DNA from: an uncultured Blastocatellaceae bacterium
GTDB taxonomy: Bacteria > Acidobacteriota > Blastocatellia > Pyrinomonadales > Pyrinomonadaceae
Direction: 5' to 3'
NCBI GenBank assembly: GCA_964487505.1
Contig: CAZARD010000002.1
Span: 2,527 to 66,526, forward strand
DNA length: 64,000 nt
In this document: positions 3,572 to 48,994 of the stretch, piece after piece
Numbering within the stretch: position 1 is the first letter of the stretch
Layout of the letters: every line of letters starts with the position of its first letter
The notes under the pieces: model-generated
What the model saw: the letters and a program-made list of their open reading frames with translations, nothing else
The model's database searches: none
What the model was told of the DNA's origin: nothing
Program-made: the position numbers and the translations under genes

Positions 3572-3659
3572 GACAAACGTGATCCGGGTCGACTTGCCGC
3601 CTGCGAGCCGATCCGGCCATTCCGGCCGAATCCGAACAGCCCATAAATATGAACCTGAA

Positions 3660-3847
3660 TTGCGCCCAACAATCGCCATCCCGGATTCTTGATGAGTTTC
3701 GAAATGCTTGACATTGCGCCCTTTGCGTTCTTTGCGTGGGACAATGCCTGTTTGGCGAGGGCCTGTCGATTTCTCGCGCAAGGCCCGCCACGATCGCGAC
3801 TGCGAGAGTTATCAACATTAGCCCCATTGCGTAATCCCGGATGAATG
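3660..3847. repeat. dispersed hairpin repeat, copy 1 (diverged)
   Basis: Aligns without gaps over about 177 nt (3671-3847) to 30841-31017. Shared blocks include CCATC-CGGATTCTTGA, CCTTTGCG-TCTTTGCGTGGGA-AATGCCT-TTTGGCGAG, CTCGCGCAA and GCGTAATCCCGGATGAATG. Confidence 0.8.
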
Positions 3848-19542: not shown

Positions 19543-19549
19543 GCCCGAA

Positions 19550-19636
19550 TTGGATTGAAAATCCAAAGATACCGGTATCCAGGCAAGTTTTGTCGAACTG
19601 TTCGGACAAAGGCGTCGCCGTGCCCACGGCGACGCC
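19550..19636. terminator. cluster of three palindromes/hairpins between convergent proS and FHA-PrsW genes
   Basis: TTGGATT-gaa-AATCCAA (19550-19566), GATACCGGTATC (19568-19579), and GGCGTCGCCGT-gccc-ACGGCGACGCC (19611-19636). There is no clear U-run. Confidence 0.45.
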
Positions 19637-19650
19637 GGCATCCGCCATTG

Positions 19651-19692
19651 ATCGAAATCCAAAATCCCAAATCGAAAATCCAAAATCCAATC
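19651..19692. repeat. heptamer tandem array (6 units, ATCSAAA-type)
   Basis: ATCGAAA TCCAAAA TCCCAAA TCGAAAA TCCAAAA TCCAATC, abutting the stop codon at 19693. Confidence 0.8.
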
Positions 19693-21475: not shown

Positions 21476-23542
21476 TTACGGCTGGACCGATGTCGGCGAA
21501 GCAATATCGCCGTTGATCCCGAACGCCCGCGAACTGAAGGCGCCGTTCGCGCTGCTCAGGCGGTACCAGACGTTGTTGTCGGGTCTGAACACCGCGATAT
21601 CCGCGCCGCCGTCGCCGTCGTAGTCGGCCGGGACCGGAACATCGGTCGCGAGCCCGAACCTTGTGATCGAGACCTGGTTGGTGGCCGACCTGATCGTGTA
21701 CCAATTTCCTTCCGACGGACGATAAACCGTGAAATCACTTCGCCCGTCGGCATCAAAATCCGCCACGACCGGTTTGTCGGTAGAGAGGCCCCAAGTGTAG
21801 ATCAAGGGCAGGCTCGACGAACTCTGCATCACGTACCAGACACCGGTGCTGGGGCGAAAGATCGCCATATCCGATTTGCCGTCTCCTTCGAAATCGCCGG
21901 TCAGCGCGGTATCGGTGCTCAGTCCCCAGTTCTGGATCAGGACGCCGAGCGTGCTCTGCATGATGAACCAGGTTCCGGTCGAAGGCCTCCAGACCGCGAC
22001 ATCTGTCCGCCCGTCGGCATCGTAATCGCCTTCGACCGGATTGTCGCCGTTGAGACCGAACTGGACCTGATAGAAAGTGTTGTTGGAACTGTTGATTCGG
22101 TACCACGTGCCGTTCGAAGGCCTCCACAGCGAAATGTCCGAACGGCCGTCGCCGTCGTAGTCGCCCGTCGTCAGGCGGTCGCCCGAGAGGCCGAAAGTCG
22201 ACTGCGAGAAGGCCCCGTTCGAACTGCGTTCGATGTTCCACGTTCCGGTCGCCGGGCTGAAAGTCGAAAGATCCGTCTTGCCGTCGCCGTCGAAATCCGA
22301 AATCCGGTTGCGCGGCGGCGCGGTCGAGCGCGAGACGTCGACGATTACGAGCCCATAGGTAAGGTCGCCGAGCAGGACCTTGTCCTCGCCGAGAAACGGG
22401 AAGACCGCCCAGTTGCCGTCATAGGACGTCGGCAGGACGTTCTGAAGATTCTCGCTCCCGCACACAATGTCCCAGGGCTCTTCGGTAAGGCCCTGGACAT
22501 CTGTTGGAACGAACGTCTGCTGGTATGTATCATACTGACCGATCCGCTTCGGCTGTTGCGGGACCGCGAGGTCGAACAACTGAAGTCCCGCCTGATACCA
22601 CGAAACATAGAGTTTGCTGCCCATCACGACCGGATTGTGGGGTGTGACGGCGTTAAGGGCGAGACCGTCCATCGTTTGCCGGTCGACGAGGACCGGAGCG
22701 GAAGGGACGGTGATGTCGTAGACGCGTATGTCGCCCGAGCCGTTGGTTGTTTCTCGAGCGCTGTAAAGCGTGTTGCCGTCCTCGCTCGACCAACTGCTGT
22801 GCATGCTGTTGCCGGCCGTGACCGAGGTCGTGTCCTCGATGAAACCCAGAAGCACGGGCGCCTGCGTCGCGATATTCGAGATGTCGTAGATCTCAGTGCG
22901 CCCGCGGTTCGTCGAATTTCCCCAACCCGAAGTGATCATTCGGTTTCCGCGAATGTGCATCGCGTGGACCCATTGCGGTTCGGTCGGATTCAGATCGCGC
23001 ACGAAAACCGGCGCGGCAGGGTTCGTGACGTTGATGAACTTGATGATCTTGTTTGATAGCGAATTCGAGTTCTCGATCAGATACGTTTGTCCGTTCTGCG
23101 AGATGACCATCATCTCGTGGATCGAGTTGTGACCGTTGCCGTTCGTCGATGTCACCTGCCCAAGGAGCACCGGATTCGAAGGGTTCGTCAGATCGACGAT
23201 GTGGACGCCGCCGCCGTTCCCACTCCCGAAATACCCGCGGTTCCCGACGACGATCGCCTCAAGGAACTGCTGGTTCGCTCCCGGGTTGTACCACGACGAA
23301 AGCGTCGGCGCGTCGGGGTTGGAAATATCGTAGATGAACGCGCCGCGGCAATTGTAGCTGCCCTGGACGGCGATGTTGCCGTCGGCGTAAATATCCGAGA
23401 ACTTCCAGCGCGACGTTCCGCTCGAACAGGTCGGCGTGATCTGAGAGCGGAGCCGGACCTTCTGCGCCACGACCTCGGCAACAAAAGCCGTTGACAAAAA
23501 CACTCCGACCAACAAAAACAAGACAAGCGATCTCTTCTTCAT
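21476..23542 (-). CDS. secreted LVIVD-repeat beta-propeller / FG-GAP (VCBS) repeat protein
   Basis: Signal peptide MKKRSLVLFLLVGVFLSTAFVAEVVAQ (start at Met15 of the track ORF). It has an LVIVD motif (GLVIVDVS) and about 7 C-terminal repeats of the form DFDGDGKTD..W...S. Confidence 0.8.
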   Translation of the reverse strand: MKKRSLVLFLLVGVFLSTAFVAEVVAQKVRLRSQITPTCSSGTSRWKFSDIYADGNIAVQGSYNCRGAFIYDISNPDAPTLSSWYNPGANQQFLEAIVVGNRGYFGSGNGGGVHIVDLTNPSNPVLLGQVTSTNGNGHNSIHEMMVISQNGQTYLIENSNSLSNKIIKFINVTNPAAPVFVRDLNPTEPQWVHAMHIRGNRMITSGWGNSTNRGRTEIYDISNIATQAPVLLGFIEDTTSVTAGNSMHSSWSSEDGNTLYSARETTNGSGDIRVYDITVPSAPVLVDRQTMDGLALNAVTPHNPVVMGSKLYVSWYQAGLQLFDLAVPQQPKRIGQYDTYQQTFVPTDVQGLTEEPWDIVCGSENLQNVLPTSYDGNWAVFPFLGEDKVLLGDLTYGLVIVDVSRSTAPPRNRISDFDGDGKTDLSTFSPATGTWNIERSSNGAFSQSTFGLSGDRLTTGDYDGDGRSDISLWRPSNGTWYRINSSNNTFYQVQFGLNGDNPVEGDYDADGRTDVAVWRPSTGTWFIMQSTLGVLIQNWGLSTDTALTGDFEGDGKSDMAIFRPSTGVWYVMQSSSSLPLIYTWGLSTDKPVVADFDADGRSDFTVYRPSEGNWYTIRSATNQVSITRFGLATDVPVPADYDGDGGADIAVFRPDNNVWYRLSSANGAFSSRAFGINGDIASPTSVQP

Positions 23543-23787
23543 TAAATGGTGCTCCAAATGCGGATGAATACCCTGGTATGGCAAATCGATAAATTCTGAC
23601 CTATTTCACCCGAAAATACAAGGCCTAACGGCGATTTGCATGATCGTTCGGGCGCCGGCGCGGCACGCGAAGCACGGCCGAACGGAGCGCGCTGAGCGGC
23701 GAAGGCAACTCAAGCGGCGGCGAAACCGGCGGCGAGGAAAGTTCAAGGTCCGAAAACTGCCGCAAAAAACCGATGCGAAGCGTCGAT

Positions 23788-30821: not shown

Positions 30822-31017
30822 AATCCAAATTACGTCTTAGGGTTTCCATCGCGGATTCTTGACGGGTTTCGGACTGGCTGACGTTCCGCCCTTCGCGGAC
30901 TTTGCGTGGGAAAATGCCTTTTTGGCGAGTGGACGCCGGTTCCTCGCGCAAAGCCCGCAAAGATCGCAACGGCGACAATCATAAAGATTCGCCTCGATGC
31001 GTAATCCCGGATGAATG
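30822..31017. repeat. dispersed hairpin repeat, copy 2
   Basis: By eye about 85-90 percent identical to 44121-44312. It contains paired arms CGTTCCG..CTTCGCG..CTTTGCG / CGCAAAG..CGCAAAG..CGCAACG. Confidence 0.85.
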
Positions 31018-33897: not shown

Positions 33898-33932
33898 CTC
33901 ACCGCTCACCGCTTGCTGCCCACCGCTCACCG
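33898..33932. repeat. short CTCACCG heptamer repeat between convergent genes
   Basis: CTCACCG CTCACCG cttgctgcc CACCG CTCACCG. The last unit overlaps the NPP gene stop. Confidence 0.6.
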
Positions 33933-35168
33933 TCTCAACATCGAACGGACGTTCTCGATCCGGCCATCGTTCGGTGCGGGTTTGAGACCGAGAATCTCGC
34001 ACATCAGGTTGTATACCTCGACGTTCGCGAACGGCTCGGCGACGAAGGACCGTTTGAAGGCCGGACCGTGCGCGACGAATGTCGCCTGCATCGACTGATA
34101 CTTGTTGTCGTAGCCGTGAGCGCCGCGCGGGCGGGCGGGATCATCGATGTCCTTGGTCAGATCCTCGTAGCGTTTCCGGCTCGTCGTCAGCCATCCTTCC
34201 TCGCTCGAGCAGACGATCGGCGCCACGCGCTTGCCTTGCCGGTAATTGAGGCGCTCGGGGATGTCTTCCTTTTTCCAGCAGGTCGCGTGCTCGAGTTTCG
34301 AGATCTTCGCAAAGATCCCGTCGATCTTGCCGGGCTTCGGAAAGATCTGGATGATCTCGTTCGTCCAAAGAATCCGTTCGGCGAGGTCGAAATCGAAGTG
34401 ATCGTCAAGGAACGTTCTTTGGGTGTAATAGACGGGCGCCATTCCGTGATCTGAAACGATCATCACGTTCACTTTGTTGTCGATCTTGCGCGCCCGAAGT
34501 CCGTTCATCAGGCGTTCGAGATAGCTGTCTACGTTCCAAACGGCGTACTTCGTCTCCTCGGCATCGGGGCCGAACGCGTGGCCCGCGTCGTCCGTGTCGG
34601 AAAAATAGAGCGTCATCATCGTCGGCCGTTTTTCCTTCGGAAGATCGAACCAGCCCAGGACCTTGTCGACACGCATCTGGGGCGGGACGTCGCCGTCGTA
34701 TCTCCGCCAGAACGTCGGTTGCTCGCCGTTTATCAGGGTTTCGGACCCGACGAAGAAATACGACGCCGCGATCCGGCCCTGTTTTTCGGCGGTCACCCAG
34801 ATCGGCTCGCCGCCCCACCAGCGCGGATTCTCGACCTCCTTGCGTTTCGACATCGAGAATACTTCCCCGAAATCGAACACGTTGTTCTCGACGATGCCGT
34901 GGTTTGCGGGGTAAAGCCCGGTCGCTATCGTGTAGTGATTCGGAAAGGTCTTCGTCGGGAAAGACGGGACCATCCACTTCGCCCGGACGCCCTCGCGCGC
35001 CAGGCGGCGCAATGTCGGCGGAGAGAACTTGTCGATGTAATCGTACCGGAACCCGTCAAGCGAGATCAGGATCACGGTCGGCTCGAGATCCCGTACGGGC
35101 TGTTGGGCGAACGCGGTCGTGGCCGGGAACGCGACAAACAAGAGCAGCAGTCGGAAAAGCATCTTCAT
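33927..35168 (-). CDS. ectonucleotide pyrophosphatase/phosphodiesterase (NPP, alkaline-phosphatase superfamily)
   Basis: Signal peptide, SLDGFRYDY, the catalytic Thr block PTKTFPNHYTIATGLYP, and HGYDN. Confidence 0.9.
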   Translation of the reverse strand: MKMLFRLLLLFVAFPATTAFAQQPVRDLEPTVILISLDGFRYDYIDKFSPPTLRRLAREGVRAKWMVPSFPTKTFPNHYTIATGLYPANHGIVENNVFDFGEVFSMSKRKEVENPRWWGGEPIWVTAEKQGRIAASYFFVGSETLINGEQPTFWRRYDGDVPPQMRVDKVLGWFDLPKEKRPTMMTLYFSDTDDAGHAFGPDAEETKYAVWNVDSYLERLMNGLRARKIDNKVNVMIVSDHGMAPVYYTQRTFLDDHFDFDLAERILWTNEIIQIFPKPGKIDGIFAKISKLEHATCWKKEDIPERLNYRQGKRVAPIVCSSEEGWLTTSRKRYEDLTKDIDDPARPRGAHGYDNKYQSMQATFVAHGPAFKRSFVAEPFANVEVYNLMCEILGLKPAPNDGRIENVRSMLRR

Positions 35169-36293: not shown

Positions 36294-36442
36294 GATCCAA
36301 GATTCAAGAGTCAAGATTCAAGAGTCAAGATTCAAGAGTCAAGATTCAAGAAATCCAAATTCCAAATTCCAAATTCCAAAATCCCAGATCCCAGATCCCA
36401 GATCCCAGATCCCAAATCCCAAATCCCAAATGCCAAATGCCA
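36294..36442. repeat. 149-bp in-phase heptamer array (about 21 units)
   Basis: GATCCAA, then (GATTCAA GAGTCAA)x3.5, GAAATCCAA, (ATTCCAA)x3, AATCCCA, (GATCCCA)x4, (AATCCCA)x2, (AATGCCA)x2. It runs from the asnS stop codon to 24 nt before the lipoprotein ATG. Confidence 0.95.
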
Positions 36443-37753
36443 TCAAGGTCTCAACCGGTAAAGCATCCTCGGGAACGGAATCGTCTCACGGATATGCTCG
36501 ATGCCGCACATCCAGGCGGTGCAGCGCTCGATTCCCATTCCAAACCCGGCGTGCGGGACGCCGCCGAACCGCCGCAGATCTAAATACCACTCAAACGCTT
36601 CTTTGGGAAGATCGTGCGCCGCGATCTGCTTTTCGAGAAACTCCAGATCGAACGCGCGCTCGCCGCCGCCGATGATCTCTCCGTATCCTTCGGGCGCCAA
36701 TAGATCCACGCCGAGCGCCAACTCGGGACGGTCCTTGTCGCGCTCAAAATAGAACGCCTTGATCGCGGCCGGGAAGTGGTGCACGAACACCGGCTGGCCA
36801 AACTGGCTCGACAGATAGGTCTCGTCGGGCGCGCCGAAATCGCCGCCCCATTCGAAAGTGTTCTCGAGTTCGCCTTTCGCGTGTCCTTCCTGAAGCATCT
36901 TGACGGCATCGTCGTAATGGACCCGCGGGAAAGGCGCGGAGATGGCTTCGAGTTTCGTGATATCTCGCTCGAGGACGTTGAGATCGTCGCGACGATCCTC
37001 AAGCACGCGGCCGGCGATGAACGTGATCATGCGTTCGCCGAGGTCCATCACGTCGGCGAGATGCGCGTATGCCATTTCCGGTTCGACCATCCAGAATTCG
37101 GTCAAATGGCGCCGGGTCTTGGACTTTTCCGCACGGAACGTCGGTCCGAAAGCGTACGAGCGACCGAATGCGGCAGCCGTCGCCTCGTTGTACAGCTGCC
37201 CGCTTTGCGTCAGATATGCCTTGTCGTCGCCGAAATAATCGACCTCGAACAACGTGGTCGTCCCCTCGCAGGCAGCGGGAGTGAAGATCGGCGTGTCGGC
37301 GAGGATAAAGCCGTTGGAGTCGAAGAAATCGCGGACGGCCTTGATGACCGTATGCCGTACGCGCAGGACCGCGTGCTGCTTCTTGGAGCGGATCCACAAA
37401 TGCCGGTGGTCCATTAGAAACTCGGTACCGTGCTCTTTCGGTGTGATCGGGTAGTCGTGGGCGTTCTGAATCACCTCGAGCCCGGTGACATCGAGTTCGA
37501 CGCCGATCGGCGAACGCGCATCTTCCTTGACGTTGCCGCGAACGACGATAGACGATTCCTGCCCGAGCCCTTTGGCCCTCTCGAAAAGCTCTTCGTTGTT
37601 CGGTTTGAAACAGACGCACTGGACGATTCCCGTACCGTCGCGAAGTTGAAGGAACGCGAGTTTGCCGCTTGAACGCGAGTTGTAGAGCCAGCCCTTGAGG
37701 GTTACCGCCTCGCCGATGTGATTCTTTAGTTCGTTGATATATGTTTGGTTCAT
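36443..37753 (-). CDS. asnS: asparagine--tRNA ligase
   Basis: Class IIb aaRS with an OB anticodon domain, motif 2 [21 protein letters not shown] and motif 3 GFGMGIER. The start is at MNQTYINEL (Met27 of the track ORF). Confidence 0.95.
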
Positions 37754-37929
37754 TGTCGAAAGCGCTCGGATCGGATCGGTGATCCCGAATCCCGACGCAA
37801 CGTTCATTCTAGCGAAAATCTCGAATGGCAAAAAGTCGGCAAGCGCGGGGCGTCCGGCGGCGGGCGCGACCTGCCCGGACCGAACATCGATTTGACATTT
37901 TGAAAGTATGTAACTAATCTGGTTACACT

Positions 37930-40821: not shown

Positions 40822-41619
40822 ATGAAAAATATTCAAGCATCAGGCTGGATCCGGCGTTTGACCGCACTTTCTTTGGCGGTCGTCCTGTATTCCACTTCGG
40901 TCGCGTTTTTGTTCGCCGCCACGTCGGCGAGGGCGCTTGGCGAGATCTCAGTCAGCGGAGGCAGCAGTACCGCCCGCTTTGTTTGGGTGAACGGCGAAAA
41001 GGCCTTCAGCGGCCGGACCTTCGTGTCGGGCGCATTGATCGCGACCGAGGCTGACAGCGCCGCCGTCCGGCTCAATAACGGTTCCTCGATCCGTCTTGAG
41101 GCGAACAGTTCGGTCGAATTGAGCTTTTCGGAAACGTCGATCGGCGGACGCGTCATCTCCGGGAAGGTTGATGTTTTCGCCGCCCAGGGAGTCGATGTGA
41201 ACGTGACGACGCCAGACGCTGTGATCTCCGATGAGAATGCCGATGCAAAACGCTTTACGCTTGACCTTAATTCGGGAACCACGACCATGAATGTCGAAAC
41301 CGGCTCGGTCCTACTCAGCAACGGCAACGGCGCGGTCCCGGTCAGTGTCGGCGGTGACGACGAACGCGACGGCAGCGGGAAATGCGTCGACACCGACAAG
41401 GACGGCAAGCTGGAGTGCGATTGTGACAGCGACGACAAGAAAGACAGCAACGGCAACTGCGTCGATACCGACAAGGACGGCGTGCTTGAATGCGGTTGCG
41501 GCGGCGGCGGCGGAATGGCCGCCTGGAAGCCGGCGGCGCTCTTTGCGGGAATAATCGGAACGGCGGTCGTCGCGCTATTGATCGCGACCCGTGACAACGA
41601 AGAGAGCCCGCGCCGCTGA
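40822..41619 (+). CDS. secreted FecR-like domain protein with Asp-rich Ca-binding-type repeats and C-terminal Gly-run + TM anchor
   Basis: Signal/anchor, then two CVDTDKDG(K/V)LEC repeats (DxDxDG), then GCGGGGG followed by the helix AALFAGIIGTAVVALLIA and a charged tail. Confidence 0.55.
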   Translation: MKNIQASGWIRRLTALSLAVVLYSTSVAFLFAATSARALGEISVSGGSSTARFVWVNGEKAFSGRTFVSGALIATEADSAAVRLNNGSSIRLEANSSVELSFSETSIGGRVISGKVDVFAAQGVDVNVTTPDAVISDENADAKRFTLDLNSGTTTMNVETGSVLLSNGNGAVPVSVGGDDERDGSGKCVDTDKDGKLECDCDSDDKKDSNGNCVDTDKDGVLECGCGGGGGMAAWKPAALFAGIIGTAVVALLIATRDNEESPRR

Positions 41620-41723: not shown

Positions 41724-41799
41724 TGGTGAGTCGTGCAGGGCTCGAACCTGCGACCCGAAGATTAAGAGTCTTCTGCTCTACCAACTGAGCTAACGACCC
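41724..41799 (-). tRNA. tRNA-Lys (anticodon CUU), CCA encoded
   Basis: The reverse complement GGGTCGTTAGCTCAGTTGGTAGAGCAGAAGACTCTTAATCTTCGGGTCGCAGGTTCGAGCCCTGCACGACTCACCA folds as a 76-nt cloverleaf. The anticodon loop is CT-CTT-AA. Confidence 0.95.
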
Positions 41800-41982: not shown

Positions 41983-43656
41983 ATGAAGGAATGTCCGGAA
42001 TGCAAGGTCTGTTACGGCGACAATGTCGCGATGTGTCCTGCCGACCGCAAGGAGACGCGATTCTCGTTGCCCGGGGACCAGTTGCTCGCAGGCCGTTACT
42101 TTCTTGAGCGCCAGCTTGGAAAAGGCGCGATGGGGCAGGTCTATCTCGCGCGCGACAAGAAATTCGACGCGCGCTGGGTCGCGGTCAAGACCGTGCGTCA
42201 GGATCTGCTGAGTTCAGATGACCTTCAGGAAGGCGAGGCGATCGCCCGGTTCGAGCGCGAAGCGCAATCGGCCGCCTCGATCCAGCATCCCAACACCGTT
42301 TCGGTCACGGATTTCGGTGAAACGCCGGAAGGCGTGTTCTATCTCGTGATGGAATACGTGGAGGGAGAGACTCTCCATCGACTACTGCGCCGCGAAGGCA
42401 CGCTCTCGATCAAACGTGCGGTCAGGCTGCTTCGTCAGATCGCCGACGGCGTCGAGGCGGCCCACGACCGGGGCATCCTTCACCGCGACCTGAAGCCGGC
42501 GAACATCTTCCTTATGTCGAAAGGTCGTCCCGGAGACGACGGATTTATCAAGGTGGGCGATTTCGGTCTCGCGAAGATCGTGAACCAAACCGCAACCGAT
42601 ATCAATTCGAAGAATTCTCCGTCGTCGCGGGGCATCATCGGCACGCCCGAGTTCATGGCACCCGAGCAGATGCAGCCCGAACTCGGCGTCGACGTCAGGG
42701 CCGATATCTATGCGCTTGGAACGATCGCGTACCTGATGCTCGGTGGCCGGACCCCGTTCACGGGCGATCTGATGCAGCTCGTGATGCAAAAGGTAATGCA
42801 GTCGCCGCCGGCGCTCTCGACGATACGAACCGACATTCCGGCGGATGTCGAACGGGTGATTATGAGGGCGCTCGAGACCGACAAGGGCCGGCGACCGGCG
42901 ACGGTCGGCGAGTGGATCGGCGAACTTGAGCAGGCATCGGGCGATGTCGACGAACCGCGCGGCAGCGGTTCGGCCCGGCTGGTTATCTTGGCGCCGGTCG
43001 GCGCCGAGGTCTACGTGGATGACGAAAGGCGCGGGAGCATTGGGAGTTCGGGTCGGCTGGTGCTCGCCAACGTTCCGGCCGGACAGCATGTTCTGCGCGT
43101 CTCGAACGCCGGCGACAAGGATGACGAGCGGGTCATCGAACTGCGCGAAGGCGGTGAAGAGCAGGTCATACAGGCGCAGCTCAGGAGTGTGAAGGCGTCT
43201 TCGAGCCAGCCGTCGCCGTCACAGGGAAGCCAGAGCGGGACCGCGCAGTCGAGCATTATGCCGGGCATCGTCGCGTGCGCGAACTGCGGAGCGCGGTTTG
43301 CCGAAGGCGTCAAATTCTGCGGACGTTGCGGGAACCGGAGTTTCACCGCCGTGAGCGCCGGACCTAACTCGCGCAGCTATTCGACTTGTCCGCGCTGTTC
43401 CGCGATGCTCCCGCAGGATGCCAAGTTTTGCGGCAAATGCGGCGCGCAGTTCGGCCATCTGACGGCCTCGCCGCCTGTCTCCGGCGTCGCGCCCTTCGTG
43501 AATCCGGGCGTCACCTATCCGCCGCCGGTGACGCCGCCGACCTTCACCGCGCCGATGCAACCGCCGGTTAGCGTTCAGAGAATCTGCCCCCGATGCGGAA
43601 ATGTGGTATCCCCCGGATCGCGTTTCTGCGGCAAGTGTGGCGGACCCGTGGCCTGA
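41983..43656 (+). CDS. Ser/Thr protein kinase with N-terminal zinc ribbon, PEGA domain and three C-terminal zinc ribbons
   Basis: Kinase motifs GKGAMGQVY, VAVK, HRDLKPANI, DFG and APE. A PEGA-like segment (LVILAPVGAEVYVDDERRG) follows. Three CxxC..FCGxCG ribbons lie at the C-terminus. Confidence 0.9.
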   Translation: MKECPECKVCYGDNVAMCPADRKETRFSLPGDQLLAGRYFLERQLGKGAMGQVYLARDKKFDARWVAVKTVRQDLLSSDDLQEGEAIARFEREAQSAASIQHPNTVSVTDFGETPEGVFYLVMEYVEGETLHRLLRREGTLSIKRAVRLLRQIADGVEAAHDRGILHRDLKPANIFLMSKGRPGDDGFIKVGDFGLAKIVNQTATDINSKNSPSSRGIIGTPEFMAPEQMQPELGVDVRADIYALGTIAYLMLGGRTPFTGDLMQLVMQKVMQSPPALSTIRTDIPADVERVIMRALETDKGRRPATVGEWIGELEQASGDVDEPRGSGSARLVILAPVGAEVYVDDERRGSIGSSGRLVLANVPAGQHVLRVSNAGDKDDERVIELREGGEEQVIQAQLRSVKASSSQPSPSQGSQSGTAQSSIMPGIVACANCGARFAEGVKFCGRCGNRSFTAVSAGPNSRSYSTCPRCSAMLPQDAKFCGKCGAQFGHLTASPPVSGVAPFVNPGVTYPPPVTPPTFTAPMQPPVSVQRICPRCGNVVSPGSRFCGKCGGPVA

Positions 43657-43664
43657 ACGTTCCG

Positions 43665-43811
43665 GAGATTCCAGATTTCGGGGATTCCAGATTCCAGATT
43701 CCAAGATTCCAAGATTCCGGAGAAAGCGGAGAAAGCAGAGATCCCGGAGGTTCCAAAGATTCCAAAATTTCAGATTCCGGGGATTCCAGATTCCAGGGAT
43801 TCCAGATTCAG
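43665..43811. repeat. GATTCCA-type tandem array (7-9 bp units), forward polarity
   Basis: GAGATTCCA GATTTCG GGGATTCCA GATTCCA GATTCCA AGATTCCA AGATTCCG ... GGGATTCCA GATTCAGG. It begins 8 nt after the kinase stop. Confidence 0.9.
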
Positions 43812-43839
43812 GTCCTTCGAAAAACCGGAGCCACCGACC

Positions 43840-43867
43840 GTTCGTGTCGAGTTCGTGCTGCTTCGTG
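43840..43867. promoter_or_regulatory. three direct repeats GTTCGTG spaced 10-11 bp (possible response-regulator-type binding site)
   Basis: GTTCGTG (43840-46), GTTCGTG (43851-57) and CTTCGTG (43861-67). A 9-bp hairpin CGTGGATGA/TCATCCACG at 43864-43890 overlaps the last repeat. Confidence 0.25.
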
Positions 43868-44024
43868 GATGAAAAACGCTGTCATCCACGATTCCAGATT
43901 CCAAGATCAATCCCATATTACGCATTGGAGAAATTTGCCCGCGAATCCTCGCGAATTCGAGCGAACAAGGCAATTGTTCGGGATCGAATGCCTGAGATCT
44001 TATGCTGGTGTGTTTTCCAAGTTA

Positions 44025-44060
44025 TTGACATTGTTGATGTTATCAGAAGACAACAGTCAA
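44025..44060. other. AT-rich hairpin
   Basis: TTGAC(at)TGTTG - 14-nt loop - CAACAGTCAA, a 10-bp stem with a 2-nt bulge. Confidence 0.5.
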
Positions 44061-44120
44061 TGGCGGATTCGCGAAGATTGGCGGAGATTAGCGGTCTGAT
44101 TCCTATCGTTCAATTTGGGT

Positions 44121-44312
44121 TAATCCCAAATTCCGCGTTAGGATTTCCATCGCGGATTCCTGACCTGTTTCGGACTGCCTGACGTTGCGCCCTTTGCGGT
44201 CTTTGCGTGGGAAAATGCCTTTTTGGCGAGTGGATGCCGGTTCCTCGCGCAAAGCGCGCAAAGATCGCAACGGCGACAATCATAATGATTCCCCTCTATT
44301 GCGTGATCCCGG
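44121..44312. repeat. dispersed hairpin repeat, copy 3
   Basis: The best-preserved long hairpin: arms CGTTGCG-cc-CTTTGCG-gt-CTTTGCG pair with CGCAAAG-cg-CGCAAAG-at-CGCAACG. It has the same orientation as copies 1 and 2. Confidence 0.85.
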
Positions 44313-44314
44313 TT

Positions 44315-44463
44315 AATCTTGGAATCTCTGGAATCTTGGAATCTTGGAATCTTGGGATCTCAGGAATCCTGGAATCTGGAATCTTGAATCTTGAATCTGG
44401 AAACTCTGGAATCTGGAATCTTGAATCCCTCGAATCCAAGAACTCCAAATTCCAAAATCCATC
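44315..44463. repeat. TGGAATC-type tandem array (inverted polarity relative to 43665-43811)
   Basis: AATCTTGGAATCTCTGGAATCTTGGAATCTTGGAATCTTGGGATCTCAGGAATCCTGGAATCTGGAATCTTGAATC... The polarity switches back to forward over the last ~35 nt. Confidence 0.9.
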
Positions 44464-44520
44464 ATCCCGGACAAATCCCCTGACGCGATTTATCGAGGAA
44501 TATGCTAATCTTTTACCGCT

Positions 44521-45003
44521 ATGAAGATCTGCCCGCAATGCCGGCAAACCTATTCCGATGACGGTCTGAACTTCTGCCTCACCGACGGGAGCATTCTCGA
44601 TTTCCAACGGCCGACGGAAGCCCGGACGATGGTGTTCGAACAGCCACGCGTGACCAACGAATTCCGTCCCGTGCAGCAGTCTCAGCCGCCGGCGGTATGG
44701 CAGGGACAGCAGTCGGTCCAGCCCGCCCAATACGGAGCGGTTGCGCAAAGGGTCGGAAACACGGACCGTTCGCTCCCGATCATCTCGCTCCTGCTCGGGA
44801 TCTTCTCGATAATTCTCGGTTGTTTTCTGATCGGCATTCCTTTGGGGATCGGGGCAATAGTTACCGGCGGTTTTGCGATCCGGAACGAGAACAACGAACC
44901 CGATCGATACGGCGGCCGCGGGATGGCGATAGGCGGGGTCGTGACCGGCGCCGTCGGACTCGCGATCGGGCTTATCTTCGCCGTTTTATATATGGTAACC
45001 TGA
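44521..45003 (+). CDS. zinc-ribbon / DUF4190-like membrane protein
   Basis: The N-terminal MKICPQCRQTYSDDGLNFC ribbon has the same module as the kinase at 41983. A Gln/Pro-rich linker follows, then two Gly-rich TM helices. Confidence 0.7.
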   Translation: MKICPQCRQTYSDDGLNFCLTDGSILDFQRPTEARTMVFEQPRVTNEFRPVQQSQPPAVWQGQQSVQPAQYGAVAQRVGNTDRSLPIISLLLGIFSIILGCFLIGIPLGIGAIVTGGFAIRNENNEPDRYGGRGMAIGGVVTGAVGLAIGLIFAVLYMVT

Positions 45004-45032: not shown

Positions 45033-46340
45033 ATGCGAGTTACACTTCGCGTAGTCGCCGGGCCCCAGACGGGCCGCGTATTTACGTTTGACCAACACGA
45101 CACCTTTATGATCGGGCGCAGCGAGGACTCGCACTTCTGCCTGCCCCAGGACAAGTATTTCTCTCGCCACCATTGTCTTGTCGAGATCGCGCCGCCGCAG
45201 GCGTTCCTTCGCGATCTCGGGTCGACGAACGGCACGTTCGTCAACGGCGTCCGCGTCGAATCGGTCTACCTCAAGAGCGGCGACCGCATCCAGGGTGGCG
45301 AAACCGTGCTTGAGGTCGAGGTGACCGGCGATCCGGAGACGCGGCCGGAGTTTCCACTCGAAGCGGGAATGCGCACGACGCCGTCGATGATTACGGTCCA
45401 GTGCCTGAATTGCGGGCTTCCTTCGAAGGCCGAGGTTTCGCGGCCCGATGCGAAGATGACGTTTCTCTGCGACGACTGCCGCGAGACGCTGAAGGCGAAC
45501 CCGCAGCCCATCCCGAATTATCAGATGATCCGCGTTCTCGGGCAGGGCGGTATGGGAAGCGTGATGCTCGCGCGGCATATCACCGACGGAAGGCCGGTCG
45601 CGATAAAGACCCTGTTGCCCGAAGTTGCGGTCTCGGAGCAGTCGCTCAAACGGTTCATGCGCGAGATCGAGGTTGCCGCATCGCTCAGGCATCCGTACAT
45701 CGTGAGCTATATCGAGCACGGCACGCACAATGGAGTCGTCTATCTTGTGACCGAATTCGTGAGCGGAATGGACGCGTCAAAGCTCGCTCGCTCGCGCGGC
45801 GGGAAACTTCCGTACCCAGAGGTCGTCAAGATCATCGAGCAGACGCTTTCCGCGCTTGATTTCGCCCACTCGCAGGGATTCGTCCACCGCGACATCAAGG
45901 AGCAGAACATTCTGGTGACCGGAAATTATCCGGGCTACGTCTCGAAACTCACCGATTTCGGGCTCGCGAAGAGTTACAAGCAGACCGGAATGAGCGGCGT
46001 AACGATGGTCGGCGACGTTGCCGGCACGATCGCGTACATGCCGCCCGAACAGGTCCGCGATTTCAAAGAGGTCCAGCCGCCGTCGGACATCTACGCGACC
46101 GGGATGACGGCCTACTCGCTTCTGACGGGGGCGCACGCGCTCGACATTTCGCCGCGCGCCGGGATCGCGGAGACAGTCAAGGCGATCTTCGAAAAGCCGA
46201 TCATTCCGATCAGCCAGCGGACCAGCGATATACCGATCCGCGTCGCGAGCGTTATCGAAACGGCGATCGCGAAGCAGGTCGAACTGCGTTGGCGATCGGC
46301 GGGCGAAATGCGCGACGCGCTGTTGCGGGCGATGAACTGA
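45033..46340 (+). CDS. FHA domain - zinc ribbon - Ser/Thr protein kinase
   Basis: FHA (GRVFTF..FMIGRS..SRHHCLV..GSTNGTFVNG), then CLNCG...CDDC, then kinase motifs GQGGMGSVM, AIK, HRDIKEQNI, DFG and PPE. Confidence 0.9.
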   Translation: MRVTLRVVAGPQTGRVFTFDQHDTFMIGRSEDSHFCLPQDKYFSRHHCLVEIAPPQAFLRDLGSTNGTFVNGVRVESVYLKSGDRIQGGETVLEVEVTGDPETRPEFPLEAGMRTTPSMITVQCLNCGLPSKAEVSRPDAKMTFLCDDCRETLKANPQPIPNYQMIRVLGQGGMGSVMLARHITDGRPVAIKTLLPEVAVSEQSLKRFMREIEVAASLRHPYIVSYIEHGTHNGVVYLVTEFVSGMDASKLARSRGGKLPYPEVVKIIEQTLSALDFAHSQGFVHRDIKEQNILVTGNYPGYVSKLTDFGLAKSYKQTGMSGVTMVGDVAGTIAYMPPEQVRDFKEVQPPSDIYATGMTAYSLLTGAHALDISPRAGIAETVKAIFEKPIIPISQRTSDIPIRVASVIETAIAKQVELRWRSAGEMRDALLRAMN

Positions 46341-47664: not shown

Positions 47665-48526
47665 TTATCTCGAAGTTCTGCGGATCGTCGTGGGCATCCT
47701 TGATTCCGGCGTCGATCGCCGAGTGATACGCCGGGACAAGCCACGATCCGCGCCTCGCGCTCGCCGCGAGATAAAGCAGCGCGAGCCGTTCGTATTGCGC
47801 GTCAGAAAAACCCGGGATCGGCGCGATCAGATCATTGTTCGGATTGGCCGACGCCGGATCGCGCCGCCGCGGCTGAACAAGTTCGATATGGATCTGAAGC
47901 CCCTTCGCTTCAGTCTTCAGGAAATCGCGCGCGAATTTCGTGCCGAACCCCTTTCTGACCGGTTCGGCAAAAGGCGTCGCGGTGAGCGACGCGCCAAGCC
48001 GGTTGACGAACACGTGCGCCACCGGCTGATTGATCCAAACCGAGAGCTTGTTTCCGCGCGCCGCCGGATTCGTGTCGAGATCGGCAGGGAACTCGGCGTC
48101 GATCAGGTTCGGCGTCGACGTGTCGTGGATGATGAAATAGAGCGCCGTAATCGTGGAGCCATCGGGAAGCCGGGCCGAAGACAACGGAAGATTGAGGTCG
48201 CCACCGATCTCGTCCTCGGCGATGCCCCTTTTCTCAAGATACTTCCGGATCTTGTCGCGATTCGGTTTGACGGGCTTGCCGATCAGCCTTTCAAGCGGCG
48301 CCGGCAGTTTCCGAAGCGCTTCGCCGAGCGCTCCGCCTTTGCCGTTCGGCCTCAGCAGGCAGCGGGCCTGCTCGACGGGGCTGCCCGCAAACTGCAGCGT
48401 CGCAGGGTCGAACGCACAGGGTTGGTTCTGCGCCCAAACGTCCATAAACGAGAGAACGACCATCGCCGCCGCACAGACAGATCGCCGCAGAATGGCCGTT
48501 GATTCAGGGGACTTCGTCGATTCCAT
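47618..48526 (-). CDS. secreted Amidase_2/PGRP-like (N-acetylmuramoyl-L-alanine amidase fold) protein, tentative
   Basis: Signal peptide, then blocks FIIHDTS, HVFVNRLG, HIELV and YHSAID..KDAHDDPQNF that resemble the AmpD/T7-lysozyme zinc-amidase layout. It overlaps the ligase gene start. Confidence 0.45.
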   Translation of the reverse strand: MESTKSPESTAILRRSVCAAAMVVLSFMDVWAQNQPCAFDPATLQFAGSPVEQARCLLRPNGKGGALGEALRKLPAPLERLIGKPVKPNRDKIRKYLEKRGIAEDEIGGDLNLPLSSARLPDGSTITALYFIIHDTSTPNLIDAEFPADLDTNPAARGNKLSVWINQPVAHVFVNRLGASLTATPFAEPVRKGFGTKFARDFLKTEAKGLQIHIELVQPRRRDPASANPNNDLIAPIPGFSDAQYERLALLYLAASARRGSWLVPAYHSAIDAGIKDAHDDPQNFEINEFADAIARLLKDVG

Positions 48527-48807
48527 GATTCCAGGGATGTCGTCGAATCGAGGGATTCCACGAATTCAAAAGTTCCAGAGATTCCAAGGATTCCAAGATT
48601 CCACGGATTCCAAGATTCCAGGGATTCGAATGATTCCAGAGATTCCAAGGATTCCAAGATTTCACGGATTCCAAGATTCCAGGGATGCCGTCGATTCCAA
48701 GGATTCCAAGGATTCCAAGATTCCAGAGCTTCTTAGGATGCCATAATTCCACGAATTTCTTCGATTCCAGAGATTGGGGCGATTTCAGGAATTCCAGCGC
48801 TTCCAGG
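48519..48807. repeat. 290-bp GATTCCA-type tandem array with 61-bp higher-order repeat
   Basis: Units are (R)(R)GATTCCA. Positions 48575-48635 and 48636-48696 form a near-identical 61-bp duplication. The ATG at 48526 lies inside the first unit. Confidence 0.95.
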
Positions 48808-48910
48808 CTCGTGGAGATGTCTCAAAAATCTAACGCTGTCCGTTGGCGAACGCCGACCAGCTTCTGGATTTCAAAGCTTGACAAACCACCCCAAGAAGAA
48901 AGAAATCCTT

Positions 48911-48994
48911 CCAAAATCCAAAATCCAAAATCCAAAATCCGAAATCCAAAATCCGAAATCCAAAATCCGAAATCCAAAATCCAAAATCCCAAAT
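48911..48994. repeat. 12-unit heptamer array CCAAAAT/CCGAAAT
   Basis: Perfectly in-phase 7-mers ending 8 nt from the SIS gene stop codon (49003). Confidence 0.95.

Follow-up and report, generated by a model that had tools for sequence, protein, structure and literature searches.

Opposed GATTCC repeat arrays in an 864-bp intergenic island of an uncultured Blastocatellaceae bacterium, and related stop-anchored arrays in its lineage

An 864-bp gap (positions 43657-44520) separates a Ser/Thr protein kinase gene from a zinc-ribbon protein gene in a 64,000-nt stretch of contig CAZARD010000002.1, from an uncultured Blastocatellaceae bacterium; the whole stretch is referred to here as the window and the gap as the island. 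The island contains two opposed arrays of GATTCCA-type units together with hairpins and a dispersed repeat, and an original prediction from the letters alone had offered three explanations for it: a composite non-autonomous element, a large structured RNA locus, or a regulatory platform for the downstream genes. What, then, is this island? Analysis revealed that it is a patchwork and not one element, consisting of two opposed blocks of simple sequence repeats (SSR), a repeat of ~190 nt, ~310 bp of unique sequence and 59 nt of leader or promoter DNA. Stop-anchored, usually inverted-pair arrays of period 7 form a lineage-wide class in Pyrinomonadaceae and other Acidobacteriota, and the island itself calls for no new mechanism. 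We consider the chances about even that the island is a repeat hairpin anchored at a stop codon, of the type common in this lineage, which insertions have enlarged; the anatomy of its arrays and their slippage dynamics are stated with high confidence.

The arrays of the lineage were surveyed in a pool of 1.14 Mb, which comprised the window, 35 Pyrinomonadaceae-type genome loci and 80 metagenome loci, and arrays were counted at 3.5 copies or more. The genome loci were anchored on an aminoacyl-tRNA synthetase (aaRS) gene and came from 80 GTDB genomes. Period 7 was found in 63 of the 79 tandem arrays. The units were genome-specific (AGTGACA, CGTGAAT, GGTAAAT, ATCAGTA, GATTCAA and others) and recurrent within one genome, and identical variant-bearing units occurred at separate loci of one genome (L034, positions 5129 and 11331). 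Neighbouring arrays formed 34 pairs, of which 21 were inverted and 3 direct, the other 10 being unrelated; with the window left out, 19 pairs were inverted and 1 direct, with 5-79 nt between the arms, and long hairpins were formed.

The location of the arrays pointed to gene 3′ ends. Per kb of intergenic DNA, gaps with arrays numbered 0.82 where the flanking genes converge, 0.32 where they are codirectional and 0.10 where they diverge. In the codirectional gaps (n = 21) the upstream stop codon and the array start were separated by a median of 4 nt and by no more than 9 nt in 16, several arrays overlapping the stop codon itself, and the median distance to the downstream start, 42 nt, is an underestimate. 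A T-tract followed 6-7 of 18 compact pairs, some of which had AAAAGC...GCTTTT feet. Such feet are a mark of bidirectional intrinsic terminators. Furthermore, at least six other Acidobacteriota genomes had heptamer or octamer arrays of unrelated units just after the aaRS stop codon (Table 1), and in one of them (L082) the first array unit begins within the TAG stop codon of the aaRS gene. Unrelated units at the same aaRS 3′ site indicate that arrays have arisen recurrently and independently at gene 3′ ends.

Within the island, array a lies on the kinase side and array f on the zinc-ribbon side. Both had been noticed in the original prediction, which placed a GATTCCA array 8 nt after the kinase stop codon and a reverse-polarity TGGAATC array, adjoining the dispersed repeat, ~55 nt before the next ATG. 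The second description holds, the exact distance to the ATG at 44521 being 59 nt. The first holds for the array and its place, with two corrections: the distance is 9 nt, and the units are not strict heptamers, as parsing resolved them into a conserved GATTCC core plus 1-3 bases, giving 7, 8 or 9 nt. Tandem Repeats Finder (TRF) reported a period of 7-8 and 7-14.5 copies. Array a was divided by TRF into blocks at 43666-43718 and 43757-43809 and is broken by a 9-mer repeat, (CGGAGAAAG)x2.7, at 43718-43741; array f has a main part (44315-44427) and a short tail of opposite polarity (44433-44461). The pattern GATTCC-N1-3-GATTCC occurred 25 times in the window versus 0.15 expected, and was confined to arrays a and f, the mini-array of the core (Table 1) and 48519-48724. 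Arrays of such head-to-tail units of 5-11 nt in several copies, with copy number polymorphic between close strains, are long SSRs. They do not resemble clustered regularly interspaced short palindromic repeat (CRISPR) arrays, with repeats of 24-48 nt and unique spacers, as the units are contiguous and 7-9 nt long.

The two arrays are able to pair. Their complementarity is 70-96% over short stretches and in many registers, and co-folding gave -148 kcal/mol, versus -72 ± 3.5 kcal/mol with a shuffled partner and -93 kcal/mol for a same-polarity control. The whole 864-nt island folded at -351 kcal/mol (z = -10.3), with the arms, 505 nt apart, paired around the core.

Comparison with a close strain revealed that the arrays change in length. 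Over 20.5 kb, the JGI contig L001 matches window positions 34508-54987 at 99.28% identity, and base-by-base comparison found 7 indel events, 6 of which lie in tandem arrays, which make up ~4% of that stretch. Relative to the window, L001 has -14 nt at 36298, -14 nt at 36381 and +16 nt at 48936; in array a it has +7 nt at 43682, which is one extra GATTCCA unit, and in array f +10 and +1 nt at 44336-44344, i.e. in the 5′ part. The seventh indel is a GCG codon at 41498 in the poly-Gly tract of a FecR-domain protein. Since a strain of 99.3% identity has indels almost only within arrays, the arrays are hypervariable SSRs. Near-identical strains differ by one or two repeat units gained or lost, a pattern that points to slippage during replication or to unequal exchange.

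The L001 allele of array f was reproduced by three independent Logan runs, and the window allele of array a by three Logan runs; the variation is therefore real and not assembly noise. Likewise, the arrays are not assembly artefacts, as they are found again in several Logan assemblies and in a JGI contig of independent origin. The length polymorphism suggested as a check on the island is thus borne out. Logan short-read contigs with the flanking genes (L002-L009, L171-L173) all stop at the repeats, at ~43880 (L171-L173), shortly ahead of the mini-array, and at 44325-44368, and only the window and L001 span the whole island; these two agree in its orientation, and the Logan contigs that cover part of it are collinear with them. 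In practical terms, short-read assemblies break at the arrays and gene callers place spurious genes in them; as variable number tandem repeats, the arrays are also good markers for typing strains of uncultured Pyrinomonadaceae.

A further check proposed with the original prediction was comparison of the orthologous kinase-to-zinc-ribbon gap in relatives. The kinase/zinc-ribbon synteny is not shared by the aaRS-anchored GTDB loci, and orthologous gaps were obtained from a scan of metagenome contigs for the FHA-domain kinase, which gave 40 loci with both flanking genes complete. In the metagenome loci the order kinase, zinc-ribbon gene, FHA-kinase is conserved. Short, AT-rich gaps of 91-313 nt were found in 12 of the 40 loci; several have a long-stem hairpin, followed by a T-tract in two of them, and all have a conserved TATAAT, a CGTATAAT-like -10 box, that ends ~28-60 nt before the ATG. 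Long gaps of 1.04-1.16 kb (27 of 40) contain an extra gene of ~320 aa, and one outlier measures 4.1 kb. This extra gene is a paralogue of the zinc-ribbon/DUF4190 gene, and its protein has a zinc ribbon at the N-terminus (MKxCPTCRKTYSDDGLNFC), a single transmembrane segment and ~200 aa of C-terminal domain. GATTCC arrays, the core of the island and the dispersed repeat were absent from all 40 gaps, so that this comparison found no counterpart of the island. Decay of the extra gene was also considered as an origin of the island and rejected, as the only tblastn matches of 27 such proteins were to the N-terminal part of the downstream gene, which is intact, and none fell in the core. With the arrays, the core and the dispersed repeat absent from relatives and a remnant of the extra gene absent from the island, the island appears to be a recent, lineage-specific enlargement of what in other genomes is a terminator-plus-promoter spacer.

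The box-bearing short-gap loci include L090, L091, L093, L099, L101, L102, L107, L114, L145, L152 and L159; L090 and L101 share a long GC-rich hairpin that starts GGCAGAAACC and is followed by a T-tract, and the window has neither hairpin nor box at the equivalent place. The extra gene was seen in L108, L116-L134, L143, L147-L148 and L157-L169.

The ~190-nt repeat of the island, predicted as copy 3 of a dispersed hairpin repeat, is present where it had been placed. Its other copies lie at ~3655-3845 and 30825-31012; positions 44126-44312 share 90% identity with 30825-31010 and 79% with 3676-3840. All three copies are intergenic, in the same orientation and 160-230 nt upstream of a + strand gene, and the genes downstream are unrelated (an unknown protein, UbiD and the zinc-ribbon protein). 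Because the other two copies have no adjoining array and the downstream genes are unrelated, the repeat is an insertion independent of the arrays. Being short, non-coding and multi-copy, it is like a miniature inverted-repeat transposable element (MITE), and it shares with MITEs and ERIC-like palindromic repeats a length of ~190 nt, several intergenic copies at 79-90% identity, a long central hairpin and short direct repeats at the ends of every copy. It differs in its terminal inverted repeats, which are weak (about CC-N3-ATTACG), and we know of no partner transposase. Copies 1 and 2 are flanked by ATGAAT-like direct repeats; their flanks are nearly the same sequence and may therefore belong to the element rather than being target duplications. 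The central hairpin is conserved, with one compensatory pair among the three copies, which are too few for a covariation analysis. An exact-pattern scan of metagenome contigs for the core of this repeat gave no match, in a collection that evidently lacks L001, which carries the repeat. Copy 3 abuts the inner edge of array f exactly, and without it the arms would be ~315 nt apart. It also contains CATAATGATT, similar to the TATAATGATT promoter box of the relatives, and by eye a CATAAT without a -35 element.

Returning to the arrays, the GATTCC family occupies three other intergenic gaps of the window, always in a single polarity (Table 1), and pairing is thus not obligatory in this genome. In the window, a stop codon has an array next to it in four cases, at distances of 0, 2, 8 and 9 nt. 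The sense strand is the C-rich strand in array a and the G/T-rich strand in the other three. A role in Rho utilisation, through C-rich RNA, was ruled out because three of the four are G/T-rich in this way. Clusters of GANTC methylation sites (GATTC, GAATC, GAGTC) were considered too, but AAATCCA and AAATCCC units have no such site and no methyltransferase could be linked to it.

On the reading of a stop-anchored hairpin enlarged by insertions, array a would be the stop-anchored arm and array f the complementary arm, and insertions would have pushed the arms ~500 bp apart from the usual 5-79 nt, the MITE supplying 190 bp of that. That the two arms were once adjacent is possible, but we hold it with some doubt. 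Compact pairs elsewhere in the lineage may act as hairpins at transcript 3′ ends, in termination, 3′-end protection or insulation; we propose this function tentatively, at a little under an even chance. In a read-through kinase transcript, the arms of the island could pair into an imperfect duplex of ~140 bp, a plausible substrate for RNase III, whose cleavage would separate the kinase mRNA from the zinc-ribbon/FHA-kinase operon. No specific reader of the array sequence itself would be required.

Several points weigh against this reading. The 505-nt separation of the arms is far beyond that of the compact pairs; the island has no consensus terminator, promoter or T-tract after either arm; and in array a the strand composition is the reverse of that in the window's other arrays next to stop codons. 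Unpaired, single-polarity arrays (36294-36442, 48518-48994) occur in the same genome, and two arrays in one gap will be inverted by chance half the time. Stop anchoring could mean simply that arrays grow, where intergenic DNA is least constrained, until coding sequence is reached. On the technical side, genes were called as greedy longest open reading frames (ORFs), which underestimates distances to start codons; arrays assembled from short reads can be collapsed in length; and no independent assembly reproduced the form that array f has in the window in its 5′ part.

The most serious alternative, which we nevertheless consider unlikely, is that the arrays are a neutral by-product, functionless slippage products in the least constrained DNA past stop codons, and that neither their inversion nor the island has a role. 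Rapid turnover fits this: the arrays are absent from orthologous gaps, their units differ by genome, unrelated units occupy the aaRS 3′ site, and the indels between the window and L001 are of slippage type. Comparable repeats of Xanthomonas and Nostoc are without a found function (PMC4692102), and a heptamer bias has been tied to the footprint of DNA polymerase in work cited in PMC4679880 and PMC4692102. Pure slippage, however, leaves unexplained the 19:1 inverted excess of neighbouring arrays, the terminator-like feet with T-tracts on many pairs and the identical variant-bearing arms at two loci of L034, and the convergent > codirectional > divergent gradient points to gene 3′ ends. A bolder explanation is one that we regard as rather improbable: stop-anchored heptamer hairpins would be a distinct, actively maintained class of 3′-end elements in Acidobacteriota, comparable to repetitive extragenic palindromic (REP) sequences, with dedicated spread and homogenisation and a role as terminators or RNase III insulators, the island being one that was split by insertions. 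Spread might then proceed via template switching between arms or an unknown heptamer-reading protein. If this were true, the ~140-bp duplex of the island would uncouple two kinase operons.

A regulatory platform, in which array f would lie in the promoter or 5′-untranslated region (UTR) and its unit number would tune the zinc-ribbon/FHA-kinase operon by phase variation as in hmw, is considerably less probable. Array f occupies the stretch 59-206 nt upstream of the ATG, with strain differences in its 5′ part, arrays of TKGAATC polarity also precede the starts of an SprT-like gene and a 302-aa gene, and there is precedent in (ATCTTTC)n of the hmw 5′-UTR, the hairpin of which is processed by RNase III (PMC12721329). 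Yet housekeeping genes (aaRS, SIS and the ProRS region) are also followed by such arrays, which track stops rather than starts, relatives have the same operon behind a conserved TATAAT box, apparently its promoter, without arrays, and the promoter scan located no promoter in the island. Moreover, the variable units are at the promoter-distal end of array f, so that -35/-10 spacing would be unchanged if the promoter is in the last 59 nt. The remaining two proposals are highly improbable, and we reject them. If the arrays were the terminal inverted repeats of a composite non-autonomous element, or arms that flip a 500-bp core, one could cite their inversion, their similar length (~145 nt each), their shared unit family and a CCGGA just outside both; but CCGGA is also found inside array a and is not convincing as a target duplication, the arms are multi-register SSRs with only short stretches of complementarity, and no transposase, invertase or recombinase was seen among the neighbouring genes. 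A composite or foldback element would be expected in several copies with the same terminal inverted repeats and target-site duplications, whereas no further copy of the core was found in the window, in the 20-kb sister contig beyond the locus or in 1.1 Mb of related DNA, the arms also occur singly, the dispersed repeat is independent and 40 gaps lack the island; nor was a promoter-like site or, in the two assemblies that span the island, a second orientation found for an invertible switch. The case for a gene in the core, whether for a structured non-coding RNA or for an overlooked small protein, fares no better. The core and the dispersed repeat fold slightly better than shuffles (z = -1.9 for the core, z = -2.05 for the repeat), and JGI gene calling placed 80-aa and 48-aa genes inside the island. 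These ORFs are translations of the repeats or, in the palindrome, Arg-rich reads, the core is absent from all relatives, and only one compensatory pair supports a structure. Rfam 15 at the gathering threshold had no match in the island, tRNA-Lys being the only family in the window, and at E <= 1 the island gave only chance matches to microRNA models, on the array. Of the large structured RNA locus, what stands is the folding potential, with arms that can pair; the island has no Rfam match and is not conserved.

Over-representation of heptamers in bacterial intergenic DNA has been known since 1990-2007. The REP sequences of Enterobacteria and Pseudomonas, with the bacterial interspersed mosaic elements (BIME), are single imperfect palindromes of 20-40 nt linked to RAYT transposases. 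The arrays described here resemble them in being species-specific, intergenic, mostly just past stop codons and present in many copies as inverted-pair 3′-end hairpins, and differ in that REP units are not tandem 7-nt arrays; no RAYT gene was found here, though none was tested for. Judged by sequence, the island belongs to the class of intergenic heptamer SSRs and closely resembles the repeats of Xanthomonas and Nostoc. The Xanthomonas heptamer, GGGAATC, is intergenic at a mean of 28 nt from the upstream ORF and forms 70-75 convergent inverted pairs per genome, with length variation between species and depletion in divergent gaps; that of Nostoc PCC 7120 is GGGGAYT (Rehm et al. 2015), and the function of heptamer SSRs is stated as open (PMC4692102). 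Shared features are a near-identical unit of ~7 nt (TGGAATC, GGGATCT or GGGATTT in the window), a non-coding, strongly intergenic location near the upstream stop (a median of 4 nt for the present lineage), frequent convergent inverted pairs and rare divergent ones, large length variation and no single functional gene class. The differences lie in the phylum, here Acidobacteriota, in the mixed 7-, 8- and 9-nt units on a GATTCC core, and in island arms that are 505 nt apart with a mobile repeat in between. In addition, the units of arrays a and f carry only GG; they lack the G3 runs required for G-quadruplexes of the Xanthomonas/Nostoc type and the at least four runs of three or more G that define such a motif.

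Heptamers are the most abundant class of long SSRs in many bacteria, as summarised in PMC4679880. The period-7 dominance found here, the non-coding location, the genome-specific units and the slippage-type copy-number changes agree with the prokaryotic long SSRs of 5-11-nt units (Mrazek et al. 2007, via PMC4679880 and PMC4692102) and with the short tandemly repeated repetitive (STRR) heptamers of Calothrix and Anabaena cited in PMC4692102. As far as these surveys are represented in the two citing papers, they apparently contain no Acidobacteria, no stop anchoring and no 19:1 inverted excess. In Haemophilus influenzae hmw1A, (ATCTTTC)n is transcribed into a long 5′-UTR hairpin, and cutting by RNase III sets expression (PMC12721329). 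There, as predicted for the island, the heptamer SSR precedes a gene and forms a long hairpin with an arm complementary to it, and in both unit number varies by strain; the hmw1A arm, however, is nearby G-rich unique sequence and not a second array 500 nt off, and the present arrays lie mainly at stop codons. The TAACTGA repeats of marine Beggiatoaceae and some Cyanobacteria are mostly forward, just upstream of starts and in 2-6 copies, with one inverted case only (PMC4679880). They share with the present arrays an abundant intergenic tandem heptamer and a genome-specific unit, and differ from them in that those found here lie at stop codons, have 4-30 units and mostly form inverted pairs. No paper on such heptamer repeats in Acidobacteria was found in the literature searched. 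The locus thus adds a phylum with an unusually clean pattern of period-7 dominance, genome-specific units, stop anchoring and 19:1 inversion. Of more interest than the island is this rule for the lineage, a by-product of the analysis, that heptamer hairpins are anchored at stop codons and mostly inverted, and it predicts 3′-end positions.

As to the remaining contents of the island (Table 1), all six features listed in the original prediction are present near the positions given there, and the gap indeed holds no credible gene. The 9-bp hairpin and the mini-array that follows it are as described. Of three claimed GTTCGTG repeats two are exact and the third is imperfect, and the short repeats and AT-rich hairpin are there, except that the hairpin (44024-44061, 11 pairs) carries a 2-nt bulge. 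CGCGAAT occurs in two copies, at 43940 and 43950, and the unique part as a whole is rich in small and decayed inverted repeats. A consensus promoter scan of the island gave no match, and a terminator scan of 43300-44800 found no terminator-like site; the GC-rich stem-loop with T-tract of an intrinsic (Rho-independent) terminator is not present in the island. By eye, the weak -10-like hexamers of the last 59 nt sit 12-20 nt before the ATG. The kinase stop codon is at 43654-43656. A protein identical to the zinc-ribbon protein is encoded on the JGI metagenome contig Ga0082021_1157289 and in several Logan assemblies.

Table 1. Positions of the island, its neighbouring genes and related arrays (window coordinates, except for the last row)
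Feature	Position	Strand	Evidence and remarks
Ser/Thr protein kinase with C-terminal zinc ribbons (upstream gene)	41983-43656	+	Pfam Pkinase 6.6e-47, DZR, Zn_Ribbon_1
Array a, ~15 GATTCC(+1-3 nt) units	43666-43809	+	TRF; unit parsing; starts 9 nt past kinase stop
GTTCGTG, GTTCGTG, cTTCGTG	43840-43867	+	Starts 43840, 43851, 43861; spacing 11 and 10 nt
9-bp hairpin CGTGGATGA/TCATCCACG	43864-43890	+	9-nt loop, no T-tract; sequence, folds
Mini-array GATTCCAGATTCCAAGAT	43890-43907	+	Same as 43690-43707; TRF span 43885-43907
Inner inverted repeat CGCGAATCC (43940-43948) / GGATTCGCG (44065-44073)	43940-44073		Encloses AT-rich hairpin; paired in minimum-energy folds
Degenerate 10-nt-period GATT repeat (GATTAGCGGA x2.9)	44066-44094	+	TRF
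Dispersed repeat copy 3, MITE-like, long central hairpin	44122-44314	+	Flanked by direct repeat GGTTAATC
Array f, ~15 GATTCC(+1-3 nt) units, TGGAATC on +	44315-44461	-	TRF; unit parsing; alleles
Pre-ATG unique segment, 59 nt	44462-44520	+	Weak -10-like hexamers TATGCT, GCTAAT; no Shine-Dalgarno
Zinc-ribbon/DUF4190 membrane protein (downstream gene)	44521-45003	+	Pfam
FHA-domain Ser/Thr kinase (second downstream gene)	45033-46340	+	Pfam; synteny in ~70 metagenome loci
Sister array AAATCCA x5	19655-19690	+	2 nt from stop of PrsW/FHA gene (- strand)
Sister array, GATTCAA, AAATTCC, AGATCCC, AAATCCC units	36294-36442	+	Single polarity; abuts aaRS stop, 0 nt
Sister arrays, GATTCCA-type and AAATCCA x12	48518-48774 and 48910-48994	+	Same polarity; latter 8 nt from SIS-gene stop
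Post-aaRS-stop arrays in other genomes	L034 11331, L035 2726, L038 11387, L051 1985, L061 11348, L082 11320		

The aaRS of the window (36443-37831) is of class II, and its best relatives are in metagenome-assembled genomes of Pyrinomonadaceae, at <=89% amino-acid identity, which assigns the window to an uncultured member of this family of Acidobacteriota. Read on the - strand, on which the aaRS and SprT-like genes are encoded, the adjoining array is (GGGATCT)x4 (GGGATTT)x3 (GGCATTT)x2 at 36380-36442, and 36380-36430 is a canonical G3-N4 quadruplex motif, the sole such case here.

Some further repeats of the window were also recorded. A single-unit inverted pair, TTGGATT gaa AATCCAA (19549-19566), is found 7 nt past the ProRS stop, followed by a GC-rich hairpin, GGCGTCGCCGTG/CGGCGACGCC, at 19611-19637 and then by the AAATCCA array that abuts the stop of the convergent gene. 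A heptamer array of an unrelated GC-rich unit, CTCACCG x5.6, lies in a convergent gap at 33898-33937 and overlaps the end of a - strand ORF. GC skew is positive in every 8-kb bin of the window, and the C-rich strand is on + in five of six GATTCCA/AAATCCA-family arrays, array f being the exception, a sample too small to interpret. A tRNA-Lys gene (CTT; 41724-41799, - strand), the sole Rfam and ARAGORN match of the window, is located between the FecR-like gene and the kinase gene. Coding tandem repeats are present at 21565-22300, as six repeats of 132-135 nt in a large - strand ORF (21476-23584), and at 41356-41505, where a 75-nt duplication encodes DTDKDGxLEC-type motifs in the FecR-domain protein.

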